From Podarcis cretensis (taxonomy: Eukaryota): 64,000 nucleotides of DNA. Below are positions 19,501 through 28,500 of the stretch, one piece after another. The position numbers were made by a program, and so were the translations under genes. Each line of letters begins with the position of its first letter. The stretch's first letter is position 1. The stretch covers positions 17,856,001-17,920,000 of the forward strand of contig OX638158.1 in assembly GCA_951804945.1 (NCBI GenBank), given 5' to 3'. A model generated the notes under the pieces. It was not told the origin of the DNA. It did not search any database and saw nothing but the letters and a program-made list of their open reading frames with translations.

Positions 19501-22500
19501 ATTTTCTCTCCCCAATCTCTGCTGGTCTTTGGGCAACAAGAAAAGGTGTGGTGTTTTTCAGGACACTTTCTGAATTTAATTTGTGGTTGATATATCCCTG
19601 CTGCTTGGTTGGTTGTGACTTCTGCATTTTATATTTGCAAGAATTTTTTAGCTACTTTTCAGAATGTAAATTAAAAAACCCCAGAATACATATGTTTGAG
19701 TGAGTTCCAGCACCTCTTTTTCTAGAAAAATAGTACTTGTCATAGCCATCCATTGCAATGGGTCTACTCTGAGAATTAGGAGTATGGGTAGAAGAATGAG
19801 TAGAAAAGAGAGAACTTGGAAGGAGTTCAACCCTTCCCAACTTCTTTGTTTGTTTGTTTGTTTGTTTGTTTGTTAGACTTATATCCCACTTTTTCTTCTA
19901 AGAGCTCAAGGTGGCGTACATGTTTATCCCCCTTCTCATTTAATCCCCACAATAACCCTGTGAGGTAGATTAGACTGAGAGGCAGTGAGGGTTGAAAGAT
20001 ACATAATTCAAACCAGATTGGACTCTAATACCCAGCTTAGAGCCTACTACCCCATGCCACACCACACACCACACCACACACCACACTAAACAAAGCCTTA
20101 CAACACATACATTCCGGTGTAGATGGCTTGTCCTTGCTGGTTCTGGAGACGGGTTTTGGCCAAATCAATGGGGAAAACACAAGTCACCCCCACAAGTCCT
20201 GCTATACCTCCGTTGATTAACTTAGCTGGAAGGCTGTAAGATAAGTTACAATGATATTCCTTGGTACAGGGATTCAAGCAGGTTGTTGTTGCGTGGCTAT
20301 TCCCTCCACCCCACAGGAGAAATGAAATAAAGACACAGGACGCCAGTGTTATAAGTTAATGGGCGAAAATGGCCACAACTTTATTGATTACAGGTAAGAG
20401 AGGTATTGGCTTTAGGCATTGGCCCCTAACCGACTATCCGGTTCTAACCGGGAAGGGTTAAACACCAACAGGGGGAGCTACCCGAGATGCATATCCCTAG
20501 GCGCTCCCCGAGGGGTTACCGCTCGGGGGCGCGCTTTAGGCCCTAGCCTCCGTAGGTTTCGGACGAGGCGTCGCCCCTCGGAGTCCTTTAACGAACTACC
20601 CTTCACTCATTGGGGGAGGTGATGGCGCTCCTCCCCCCCAATCTCATTTGCATGACAATACCCCGGCCAATGCCTACCGCCACCCGAGCCGAACAAACCG
20701 GCTCGCCGCCAATACCCTCAAACCTGTAACCAATCCCTAATTCCCTTAAAAATATCCGACAGCCAGATGTCATTGCCAGCATCAGTCAAGTGCACGCCAT
20801 CCCAGCGATATAGTGCATCCTTGCAATATTGAATTTCGGGGTGTTTGATAACCCGTCCGCCTAGCGCAGCCACCTTACGTGCGACATTGCGCTCCACAAT
20901 CCGCCTGGCTTTATCCACAGCCGCGGGTTTCACCGCATCCCGCCAAAGCCGCCTTTCCAGCAAGGATGACCAAATTATTGTAGTATTAGCGTGAGATGCC
21001 CTCAAACGCTCCAAATCATTCATAATGTTCCACATGAGGTCCACCCCTTTCCTATAAGCCAGGTCGTTCTCACCCAGTTGTATGACCAAGGCATCAGGGG
21101 CACCTTCCTCCGCAATTCTACTGGATATGACTGGGAAGAATTCTTCCCAGCGCATACCCCTTCTGGTAATCCATGAAACTTTAACGTAGCTAGGTAATTT
21201 GAGGTCAGCATCCCAACGCCTGTGCTCGGCTCGGCGTTTTGCCAAATGAACGATACTGTGGCCGGTAATCCACAGTTGCACCAACGCAGCACCTGAAAGA
21301 ATAAAATAGGAGAGCCGAGTGAGGAGGCATGTAAGCGGTGGGTAGGGGAGAATACTGACAGGAGCTTAAAAAGGCTTCCGAATGTAAGTCTTGTATGCCT
21401 GGGATTTCCAACGCCCCATGTCCATAACCCTTTCAGCCGGTAGGCCCATATGGACGGCGGTGGTCGCTGCCCCAATGCGAAAGGAATGTGCAGCGTATTC
21501 CCCATGTGGAAGACCACAGGCAGCGATCGCTTTGCGCATGACCCTCGTGAACTGATGTCTAGAGAGGAGGGATCCATCGGTATGCAAGAAAAAGGGGCCG
21601 TTAAGTTTGGGTCTCACACACAGATATTTTTTAGCATCTTTTACTGGGCAAGGGCCAGCCTTCTGGGTTGCCTGAAGGCGGATCAAGGCTCCCCTACCAA
21701 GCTGATCGGTCTTGGAACTGCGGATTCTTAATAACACGTGCGAGCTTGCTACCGTTACATCATCCAACAATAGGCCCCTGTCGGCTGCACGGTGTTCACA
21801 GACCACCTCGCCAATACGCAAAGCCCCAAAGAATGCGAAGGAAAATGCCGCCGAAAATAATCTGGCCTCGTACCTTGACCAACAAAGGGCCCTAAGTTTC
21901 CTGCGGATTTTGGTAAGTATGTCAAGTGTTATGGGCCTTCTACCATCTTGGCCCTGTGGTCTGGTCCTACGCCAGCCTTCAAGCATTTTCCGGACCACAA
22001 AATGTGAACAGGGGTCAACGGAGAATAGGGCTTTTGAAAAGAAGGATATAGCTGCCGCATGTATATTCATGGTTTTGGGAGCCCGACCTAGATCTCGCAG
22101 GTGAACCATATACTCAATGACCTCCGCCTTAGATGGCGGCCTGCCAGGCCTGAATCGCTCCTTCTTCCTGCGGAAGGATGTAAAGTCTAGCCAAGCCTTA
22201 TTATAAGAGTTTAGAGTGGAAGGAGCCAGCGCAGACAATACTCCCTTTATTGCTTCTCGTTGCCAATACTCCAGAGGTGCTCCGGAAACGGTTGCGGCTG
22301 CTGCTGCGCATCCGGCGCCAATGAGCGAAAGCGTTCCATCTGGAAACGAGACAGAGCATCCGCGATGTTATTGTCTATACCGGGAACAAATTTGGCAGAA
22401 GCGTGAAGGTTCAACCGAAGGCATGAAAGGACGAAATACCGCAAAAGCGAGGCCACTCTAGGGGAATGCGCAGATTGCCTATTTAGAACTGAGACAACCG

Positions 22501-25500: not shown

Positions 25501-28500
25501 TTATTATTATTAATATTTTTTTTTTATACNNNNNNNNNNNNNNNNNNNNNNNNNNNNNNNNNNNNNNNNNNNNNNNNNNNNNNNNNNNNNNNNNNNNNNN
25601 NNNNNNNNNNNNNNNNNNNNNNNNNNNNNNNNNNNNNNNNNNNNNNNNNNNNNNNNNNNNNNNNNNNNNNNNNNNNNNNNNNNNNNNNNNNNNNNNNNAA
25701 TTTATTAAATGAGGAAGAAGTGTTGTCAAACGGTTGTTATGCGTTGGCTGACTCTGCTTATGCAAGGCAAGTCTGGCCCTTGGAGCGTAAGTATATGCTA
25801 AGCAACAGGCTGCTGACCAAAAGGCAGTAAATCCTAGGACGTGCTAGGAAATGGCGAGTCAGCCCGGTACAGCTAGGGAGTAAAATGTGCTAAGAACAGT
25901 GATTCCAAAATTAGGAGTTTTGACCAGAGGTATTAAACGTAAAGGTGTTAAAAGTAAAGGTACTGCAGAAATTAAGTAAATCGCGTCAAAGTAAAGGTAC
26001 TGCAGGAATTAAGTAAATCGCGTCAATACGGTAAACCTAAGGCTCGAGGCACTTTTCAGATTTCCTCACTTAAAATGGCCGCCGTTGAGCCACGTGGTAC
26101 ACCTAAGATGGCGGCCAACTCGTTGTCCGGGCAACCTGGACGCCGGAACTTAAAGGGTTGCACGTCCCACGTAAGTAAGAAACCCCGAAATTGCCCTTAG
26201 CCGGAGTAAAACGACAAAGGGATCGCCAGAAACAAAAGATACTTAAATGAGCACGCCAGCGCCTCTAGCAACCCACGCAAATCAGGCAAGCAGACAAACC
26301 AACAGGAAAGGAAAAAACCCACACACCAGCACCTTTGTTCCCAGCGTCCGATCCCCTTAAAGCGCCCCCCGCTGCTTCCCCGATCCCTCCTGGACCTCGA
26401 GCGAGCGCTGAGGCAGCTCGCTACGCGGATCCCCTTAAGGTGCCCCCCCGCTGCTCCCCCGATCCCTTCTGAACCTTCAGCGAGCGCTGCGGCAGCTCGC
26501 TACTCGGCGCTCCCTTGAAGCTCTCGATGGAGTGTAATTCTGGTAGCCGCTGAACGCGGCAATCCGGCGACGGGAGGACGAAGCGTAGCGGCGGCTCCCC
26601 CGGTCCCTCTTAAACCAAGGTAAAGCAAGGTATTAAAGCGAGGTATCCTTTGTGTCACCGCTAAGCGCGGCAAGCCGGCGGCGCGAGGAGGAAAAGTAGC
26701 GTCGGCTCAGCGGCTCAAACCCACGCACGCTGCCGGCGCTCGTGTTACTGGATCGGCGATGCAAGCGGCTCAGGGGAGAAGAAGGCAACCAGGCTCGACC
26801 TCAAGGGGAGACTCGTGCAGCGGGCAAGCAGCAGCGCTAGGGAGATGATCCGAATTGCGCTCGCTGCAAGGAAGGAAAGGGGCAAGCCAAGGGCTGCCCC
26901 GACCTTATGTGGCCTCTGAAAGGCCCGCCCCTGCCGCCAGCCGATTGGCTGGCGCGCGGGGTGTGACTGGGGAATCCCTAATTCCCGCGAGGCTGACGCC
27001 AGCCCCGCGGGAGTGTGGGAGGTGTCGTGAGCCTGCAACCCCACCCCCTCATGATGATCGGTAGTGGCATTGTTGTTAGTCACCACCACACTTATACCCA
27101 CCCTTTTCTCCAAGGAGCACAAGACAGCAGTCATACATGCATGCCCTGATAGCTTTCCACCACAGCTATACAGCCCTTGGTCCAAAAAGTTTCCCCACCC
27201 CTGCTTTAAAGCAATTCCATGAGCTATGATAGGAGCCTCTGTGACCTTCACCTTTGTTATCTTCTCTTGTGCTCATCCTGGCCCTCACATTCAGTTGCAA
27301 TGCACATAGGGGTTTTTTTTTTTTAAAGAACTTTGCTGGATCTGGTTCATCTAGTGCAGGATGAACAGCAGCTGAGTTGATGTGTGCCAACAAAGAAGGC
27401 ATAAAGACAACAGTCTATCCATGCAGCTTCACACACACCCTCTAGTCACTAGTCAAACTTCTTTTGAACACGAAGGCTCCATTTAGCTACAAGCCATTCA
27501 TAGACATAGCATTAATTTTTCTAAGCGTCTTTGAAAAGCCCCTAAACTAACACATATCACTGCATCTTATGGCAGCAGATTCTGTAAGAAAATTATGCCT
27601 TGTGTGAAGAAGTGTTTTTCCTATCTGTCTTGAATCAGCTTCCCTTCAACTTTCACTAGGTCACTTTAAGTACGGTACTAGTAATGTGGACTAGTAGAGT
27701 CACTGTTTCTGCACCATGATTTCTGTTCATGCCCATAATCACAAGGAAACATTTTTGTCAGGACCAGAAGTGTCAGGGCATCAAAATCATGCATAACATA
27801 GAGAAAGTTTTCTTTTTTTCTCTCCCCCCCCCCGCCTTATCTCATAATACACTAGAACCCATGATCATCCAATGAAGCTGAACGGTAGAATATTCAGGGA
27901 AGACAAGAGGAAGGGCTTCCTCAAACAGCAGCATAATTAAACTCTGGGATTCGCTACCACAATATAAGGTGATGGCCACCAACTCAGACAACTTTAGAGG
28001 AGGATTAGACAACTGCAGGGAGGACAAGGTCACCAATGGCTACTATTCACAATGACTGTATACAGCCTCCAGGATCTACCAGTCACGGGGAAACAGCAGC
28101 AGGGGAGGGCTATTGTCCTGATCCCCTGCCTATGGGCTTCCCATTGGCATCTGGCTGGCTAGTGTAAGCTAGATTGGTCTTTGGTCTGATTCAGCAGGCT
28201 TCTTCTTATGTTCCTAGTCGACACTGAAAGCACCAGGCTCACAGGGTAGATGACATCCACAAGCAGCAAGCTTAGAGATGGCTCTGGGCTATTTTACAAC
28301 TTGAACAACACTGAGCCAGGTTATTCAGCCTTTCAGGCAGAATTAAAACTAACAAAAAATGTCTGAAAAATAGAGGACATTAACTATCCTCTGCTCCATC
28401 CTGTTGCCTGTCCACCAGTTCCCACAGATAAGCTAAGCATCCTTTATATCACTGGAGCATAGAATTCCCCACTTTCAAAAGGCAAGGAGCAAAAAGGACA

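Follow-up and report, generated by a model that had tools for sequence, protein, structure and literature searches.

How an element expresses enzymes whose reading frames lack a usable start codon is the question raised by a retrotransposon copy in the lizard Podarcis cretensis. The copy resembles the Ngaro elements of the DIRS order. It lies on the minus strand at 20291..27069 (inner ends estimated) of a 64,000-nucleotide stretch of DNA (GCA_951804945.1, contig OX638158.1, positions 17,856,001 to 17,920,000), referred to here as the window, in which all positions are counted. Four open reading frames (ORFs) free of stops and frameshifts were found on the minus strand between 25394 and 20718, as the first-pass annotation of this DNA had claimed. 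They encode a gag-like ORF1, a reverse transcriptase with ribonuclease H (RT-RNase H), a tyrosine recombinase (YR) and an SGNH esterase. We consider it probable that this is a recent lacertid Ngaro-like copy, inserted in sense orientation into an intron of a carrier gene, with the A2-B2 part of its 3' repeats absent or unassembled, and that its YR and esterase are made from spliced RNAs.

Predicted splicing of the recombinase and the esterase

The YR ORF (21366..22367, minus strand like all element features, 333 codons) has no ATG before codon 87. The esterase ORF (20718..21365, 215 codons) continues the YR frame behind a single TAA, and its first Met, at codon 71, falls after the catalytic Ser at codon 37. 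Because both ORFs lack an ATG upstream of their conserved cores, we propose that they are expressed by splicing: one donor in gag, joined to either of two acceptors, would yield Gag(N)-YR and Gag(N)-esterase, where Gag(N) stands for the N-terminal half of ORF1. Splice-based expression is new relative to the first-pass annotation, and judging from the sequence and from homologous gene models such a splice programme is likely to be real.

The predicted shared donor (24719..24727, first intron base 24724, phase 1, after gag codon 208) was placed by the junctions of homologs; comparison of the homologous proteins P0005 and P0156 located it at the Gly of T-G-T-S-S, that is, at 24724 in phase 1. The predicted YR acceptor (22339..22359, first exon base 22339) lies within the RNase H codons for S-R-F-Q-M and ranked 4th among the 434 minus-strand AGs of the element, while the predicted esterase acceptor (21292..21312, first exon base 21292), the site indicated by Gag(N)-esterase homologs, ranked 1st. 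Each is preceded by a pyrimidine tract and has a CAG just before the core of its enzyme, and both are in phase 1, in agreement with the donor. At the position of the YR acceptor, 91 of the 102 motif-bearing RTs (120 examined) have Gln. The predicted products, Gag(1-208)-YR with 532 and Gag(1-208)-esterase with 399 amino acids, compare with 533 and 397 for a pair from Zootoca vivipara. Another donor, after gag codon 12 (25312), fits in phase but was set aside, as no homolog model was seen using it.

Gene models of relatives point to the same junctions. YR homologs reached upstream of the junction in 29 of 94 cases (16 lacertid, 13 non-lacertid). In ten of the 16 lacertid models an unrelated sequence takes over precisely at the junction; the residue there is D, N or Y, each of which an N+AT codon can encode, and seven of these ten carry the N-half of Gag with its Lys-rich and then acidic or Ser-rich end. 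Among the non-lacertid long models an Asp occurs near the junction, less precisely, in 9/13. Some models form pairs. P0141 (isoform X1 of Zootoca LOC118082278, with a YR) and P0229 (with an esterase) agree at 207 of 208 positions of their N-terminal part and diverge beyond it, and LOC118082278 also names the RT protein P0002. In a frog, P0205 (YR) and P0360 (esterase) share 98% identity over 241 N-terminal amino acids, and five further YR/esterase pairs have a common N-terminus at a looser 56-80%. Numbered isoforms in NCBI annotation generally require transcript support. P0228, P0229, P0234, P0235 and P0237 are probably annotated isoforms.

Several observations weigh against this interpretation. 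The donor at 24724 has a weak consensus (joint rank 13 of 331 GTs), and at 24427 there is a better one, likewise in phase 1. The acceptor score was a crude one of our own, written after the sites had been seen. Conservation of the Gln in S-R-x-Q could serve RNase H. Six of the 16 lacertid models bypass the junction and read S-[FLI]-[PS]-D, the translated acceptor, and four of the 13 non-lacertid models (P0181, P0203, P0212, P0214) have no junction Asp. A Lys/Arg-rich stretch directly before the esterase domain was seen in only 7 of 156 esterase matches; the N-termini of distant families differ, many of them long and of low complexity, and several esterase models are fused to YR fragments and not to Gag. 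Finally, the junctions in homologs were taken from models made by automated annotation, which may be ab initio or mutually copied.

The conjecture in print is that a programmed frameshift leads from RT-RNase H into YR (Poulter and Butler 2015 as quoted in PMC13003380). Among the literature matches listed, no title or opening of an abstract reported a spliced Ngaro YR or hydrolase. In the portions available, PMC8547959 does not contain the string 'splic', PMC3783388 contains neither 'splic' nor 'intron', and PMC9210276 does not discuss splicing. That retrovirus-like alternative splicing in tetrapod Ngaro-like elements is real, unreported and replaces the frameshift hypothesis is a conclusion that we put forward tentatively, our confidence stopping a little short of an even call. 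Deletion of ORF1 alters target choice of Ngaro elements (Hackl et al., PMC8547959), an effect which, speculatively, a Gag(N)-YR fusion would explain across distant hosts.

The life cycle of such an element can be pictured as follows. Pol II transcription would run from a CpG-rich leader to the AATAAA at 20385. RNA left unspliced in the coding region would provide ORF1 and RT-RNase H, and joining of the phase-1 donor at 24724 to the acceptor at 22339 or 21292 would, as sequence and homolog models indicate, provide Gag(1-208)-YR or Gag(1-208)-esterase. More speculatively, the common N-half with its Lys/Arg-rich end would bring both enzymes into the particle or the nucleus and may guide targeting, and the esterase, by analogy with ZfL2-1 ORF1p, would act on lipids or membranes. 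In the model from the literature, RT produces single-stranded cDNA and the split repeats rebuild its ends into a circle. The Cre-like YR would then insert the circle by recombination at a short stretch of host DNA that matches it, in this case probably an AAC-rich core of 8 bp.

Coding regions, classification and age

The RT-RNase H ORF (22247..24268, 673 codons) lies in the +1 frame relative to gag, which it overlaps by 413 nt. RVT_1 (E 4.6e-14) was the sole Pfam match over the curated cut-off in the four ORFs, and no Pfam match to rve or an endonuclease was found in any of them. The YLDD motif of the RT is at 23191. The D/E/D/D residues of RNase H are in SDAAG, FLEFFP, SDNQ and ADALSR, the last of which is present in 102 of 120 relatives. 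Because neither Pfam nor later profile searches returned an RNase H profile, the catalytic assignment leans on these motifs and on general knowledge of the family, from which we take the four residues to be the catalytic ones. The ORF stops 32 residues past ADALSR and has no Pfam match to a methyltransferase. Several ideas on the expression of pol were considered and rejected. An acceptor at 23843 is in phase 2, mismatched to the donor; one at 23784 fits the donor phase, but the Gag(N)-pol join was seen only in P0009. No +1 frameshift site of the Ty1/Ty3 type was found for pol. A hidden loss of the pol start (ACG here, ATG at the gag His codon in many relatives) was dismissed, since the resulting Thr also occurs in P0006, P0021, P0064 and P0066, among the first 66 of 120 pols.

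The RT has 1065 matches, including many lizard and snake proteins with long RT ORFs. The nearest are from Podarcis muralis (88-90% identical by BLAST, 92% over the tree core), with others from Zootoca. In a tree of the window copy and 33 of the 120 RT matches, all named tetrapod records with no labelled Ngaro, DIRS1 or PAT reference among them, the copy and three Podarcis proteins formed one clade (support 100/99). The protein set comprised one representative per 90% cluster, and the source genome was perhaps absent from it. Given these relatives, and since elements of this group have already been reported in reptiles (PMC9210276), presence in an amniote is no surprise. The element is an unexceptional representative of a family that is widespread among squamates and amphibians, and as assembled it cannot be called autonomous.

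In the YR, R184, K219, H294, R297, W320 and Y328 are all present; in an alignment of 45 rows each shows conservation of at least 90% or no variation at all. Its Pfam match to Phage_integrase (E 4.7e-4) is below cut-off and NCBIfam gave a weak XerD match only, whereas a profile built from relatives matched Cre over nearly the whole length (E 2e-11). Cre is thus the best solved relative and has the full catalytic set; it differs in being a phage enzyme acting on loxP. YR overlaps the upstream RT-RNase H ORF by 121 nt (22367-22247) in the -1 frame. As an aside, one YR relative, 33% identical (P0216), is labelled as a bacterial metagenome-assembled genome (Sedimenticola) and stems from a contig of 4.5 kb that is probably eukaryotic contamination of the bin.

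The S, G, N and H of the esterase are likewise all present, with S, N and H conserved to 90% or more in an alignment of 41 rows and the block II Gly in RRGMRW. The catalytic motifs that the first-pass annotation had listed for RT, RNase H, YR and hydrolase are therefore in place, that of RNase H by motif. A Pfam match to Lipase_GDSL_2 (E 1.3e-4) is below cut-off; the structure model (pLDDT 96.5) matches SGNH folds, and with a profile from relatives the top solved relative was the esterase of ZfL2-1 ORF1p (4c1b, E 3.1e-11). That protein has its SGNH domain behind an ORF1 N-terminal region, as in the predicted spliced product, but it is encoded by a LINE with the fusion in one ORF. Binding of phospholipids and liposomes has been shown for the ZfL2-1 protein (PMC3905857), and the Ngaro esterase has no proven function (PMC9210276). 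Six relatives (P0226, P0227, P0240, P0242, P0245, P0259) are proteins of 1,309-3,112 amino acids with 4-6 copies of the esterase domain, which may be domesticated host genes or chained models of tandem elements.

ORF1 (23856..25349, 497 amino acids from the ATG at 25349; stop-free over 25394-23856, 512 codons stop to stop) is gag-like by position. It has a low-complexity N-half ending Lys-rich and then acidic, a helical C-half, and a CCCH zinc finger whose Pfam match (zf-CCCH_10, E 1.3e-3) is below the curated cut-off. The structure model (mean pLDDT 56.5) had no clear fold match; for the C-half the best Z was 4.9, Foldseek returned nothing at E<=0.001, and the ESM Atlas yielded only unnamed eukaryotic clusters. 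ORF1 is 75-82% identical to unnamed lacertid relatives, and its start lies in a good ATG context behind an acceptor-like site.

Features of the DIRS order are the RT-RNase H ORF and the YR in place of a DDE integrase or endonuclease; ORF1 has the position and size of a gag, but no clear fold match and a zinc finger below cut-off. The absence of a methyltransferase after RNase H, the YR in a short -1 overlap (a Ngaro criterion as quoted in PMC13003380) and the SGNH ORF after YR are Ngaro-like, of the amphibian type. Ngaro elements are, however, defined by split direct repeats in the arrangement A1...B1-A2-B2 (PMC9210276, PMC8547959), and these were absent from the assembled sequence, with collapse possible. 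The inverted terminal repeats (ITRs), internal complementary region (ICR) and methyltransferase of DIRS1-like elements were not found either, nor was the PAT-like combination of split direct repeats with a methyltransferase. Because no split direct repeats were found, we file the copy not as a complete Ngaro member but as a DIRS-order element that functions like, and descends from, amphibian-type Ngaro elements. The Ngaro-type assignment of the first-pass annotation thus stands for the four-ORF set and falls short on the repeats.

Several known elements invite comparison. Xenopus DIRS-53_XT and DIRS-54_XT have the same four-ORF order, no methyltransferase and signs of recent activity (PMC9210276), and Xenopus RTs, among matches without family labels, are 48-51% identical to that of the lizard copy. 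DIRS-53_XT differs in its 236-bp A and 152-bp B split repeats, while the DIRS-54_XT consensus has none, as in the lizard copy; in the Xenopus elements the hydrolase overlaps YR, which it abuts in frame in the lacertid copy (PMC9210276). The closest lacertid relatives (Podarcis muralis P0001, P0003 and P0010; Zootoca vivipara P0002 and P0141) have the same junction positions, but their records call them 'uncharacterized' or 'xerD homolog' genes and do not mark them as transposons. Dictyostelium DIRS-1 and DIRS1-like elements share gag, RT-RNase H, YR and YR-mediated integration from a cDNA intermediate, but have ITRs, an ICR and a methyltransferase of their own (PMC7192593), none of which was found here.

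Base composition supports a young, recently inserted copy. The element (GC 0.53) has a CpG observed-to-expected ratio (o/e) of 0.77 against 0.19 and 0.18 in its flanks, and a TpG/CpA o/e of 0.98 against 1.28-1.29 outside, near 1 in the non-coding ends too. A neutral-decay estimate gives P<0.05 for all four ORFs being open beyond about 0.5-1.8% divergence; this bound counts stop- and frameshift-creating changes, and its range follows the assumed indel and CpG rates. The CpG retention in a CpG-depleted host noted in the first pass was confirmed, and its young age is supported.

Ends of the element and the host locus

Likelihood change points of CpG content fell at 20271-20439 and 27009-27088, in agreement with the ends claimed in the first pass (20283..27077). 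At these edges lie two copies of an 8-bp direct repeat (AACAACAA on the element strand), the 5' copy at 27070..27077 and the 3' copy at 20283..20290, which together are a candidate recombination core or target duplication. Since a match of at least 8 nt was obtained in 16% of 2000 random window pairs, the repeat by itself is not significant, a point against our interpretation, and its weight comes only from its placement at the CpG edges; as a true boundary or core it is suggestive only. By eye, 9 nt of host sequence at the 5' junction (27061-27087) can be read with the first bases of the element as an imperfect inverted repeat (7/9) around the 8-bp core, a layout such as a recombinase site might have.

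The putative 5' leader and promoter (25699..27069, CpG o/e 0.94), which probably belongs to the element, contains tandem duplications of 79 bp (26350-26507) and 37 bp (25951-26026). A tblastn search of it with all 370 proteins gave one chance-level match (E 0.007) and thus no protein support; lying across the gap, the leader may be partly host sequence, which also counts against our interpretation. That gap (25530..25698, 169 N) lies within the claimed element, in the leader, and is adjoined by an AT-rich microsatellite and homopolymer (25465..25529), either part of a leader intron or the tail of a later insertion. On the element strand of 25465-25712 the gap has an AATAAA before it and an A-rich tail after it, and it could conceal a small retroposed insertion.

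The 3' tail (20291..20717, AATAAA at 20385-20380) is a single copy of 428 nt and is strongly structured: folding over 20283-20760 gave z -3.73 as RNA and z -5.49 as cDNA-sense DNA. It had no match in Rfam. Repeats were sought with a repeat finder, self-BLAST at word size 7 and exhaustive exact matching, all applied to the sequence as assembled. The longest exact match of the tail to the rest of the element was 14 nt (BLAST E 4.9), the tail had no internal repeat above 9 nt, and there was no exact inverted match of at least 9 nt between tail and leader or of at least 11 nt between either end and the body, hence no ITR and no ICR. This A-ORFs-B state could have come from B1/B2 recombination, YR excision between two junctions, or assembly collapse. 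Xenopus Ngaro copies with otherwise sound ORFs and no split repeats are known (PMC9210276), and solo AB repeats have been described in Cafeteria (PMC8547959). The absence of split direct repeats and the 169-N gap make activity in cis doubtful; the assembled copy could still provide proteins in trans, whereas rebuilding its own ends is probably beyond it. Of the first-pass wording 'intact, possibly active', openness of the coding regions holds, and activity is not established, given the missing B1-A2-B2 repeats and the gap.

Downstream of the element, 49 nt away and on the same strand, is an exon of a mitochondrial carrier gene (20111..20233; Mito_carr, E 3e-9), and a second carrier exon lies near 15386. 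The gene is presumably SLC25A18 (SLC25A18/22-like). Because the first exon begins at a splice acceptor (20233) without an ATG of its own, the element would lie in an intron if the gene is whole. A search for an upstream exon gave two weak, unconvincing candidates, none firmly placed, so that the intron is a probable position. The reptile host of the first-pass annotation is supported, namely as a squamate. In this region (20233-20390) the sense-oriented polyA signal of the element and its strong acceptors, about 150-1,100 nt upstream of the carrier exon, could truncate host transcripts.

No second copy of the element was found within the 64-kb window. Long proline-rich exons at 45681-52154 (minus strand), with no informative Pfam match, belong to a neighbouring gene that we take to be CECR2-like. 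A short dispersed repeat, presumably Sauria SINE-like, occurs at 13568-13642, 30053-30127 and 58150-58224, and a repeat of about 240 bp has two inverted copies (14980-15222 and 52230-52461, 80-87% alike) and a third fragment near 58526. CpG-richer patches at 5001-6000 (o/e 0.53) and 59001-60000 (o/e 0.58) may be promoters or young repeats.

Competing explanations and meaning

Other explanations have to be weighed against a spliced, repeat-deficient young copy. A fully intact autonomous Ngaro copy may be present in the animal, with B1-A2-B2 whose identical repeats were collapsed by the assembler and with the splicing proposed above. The gap inside the element does suggest assembly trouble with repeats, all ORFs are open, and the A and B repeats of very young copies show no divergence (100% identity in DIRS-53_XT, PMC9210276); yet the 3' end continues without Ns to the host exon region, and the repeat-less Xenopus copies with sound ORFs offer a precedent for genuine absence. 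We rate this as possible, though we would not favor it. It seems unlikely that the splice-like sites are incidental, with YR arising by -1 ribosomal frameshifting from RT-RNase H and the esterase through reinitiation or reading through the YR stop. In favor of this, the 121-nt -1 overlap agrees with the account of Poulter and Butler (as quoted in PMC13003380), a single TAA separates YR from the in-frame esterase, and the six bypassing lacertid models read through the acceptor. The overlap, however, contains no slippery heptamer of the form X XXY YYZ, and paired models with a common Gag N-half and a YR or esterase end are seen in lizard and frog. In addition, TAA followed by G is a poor context for stop-codon read-through.

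The two remaining explanations concern the extent and the age of the copy. The element might start at the gap, the CpG-rich 25699-27069 being a host CpG-island promoter or a separate insertion and the copy 5'-truncated. Although the Ns divide the two parts, no protein links the leader to the element and the window has further CpG-rich patches, the CpG signal runs unbroken until a change point where the 8-bp repeat has its second copy, and the acceptor-like site and good ATG context before ORF1 call for an upstream leader exon; we find truncation quite improbable. Least credible of all is a copy that is older, fixed or co-opted by the host, with selection for a host function keeping its ORFs open. 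The nearest RT is 92% identical, no near-identical sister copy was seen in the 90%-clustered protein set, and the large multi-esterase proteins are maybe domesticated; against this, cluster representatives, with the source genome perhaps absent, can hide sister copies, all four ORFs are retained, and CpG retention with TpG/CpA near 1 extends to the non-coding ends. A sense insertion with a polyA signal beside a host exon is also unlikely to be tolerated for long.

YR retrotransposons are the least tested class of retroelements, with experiments covering Dictyostelium DIRS-1 only, as far as the available literature goes. A near-pristine amniote copy with predicted splice junctions indicates which proteins should be made, Gag(N)-YR and Gag(N)-esterase, and supplies an 8-bp candidate core for recombination, so that two questions become testable, the expression and targeting of YR and the role of the esterase. 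If true, the splice programme would take the place of the frameshift hypothesis, establish which proteins these elements really make, and give a physical reason for the effect of ORF1 on targeting (PMC8547959).

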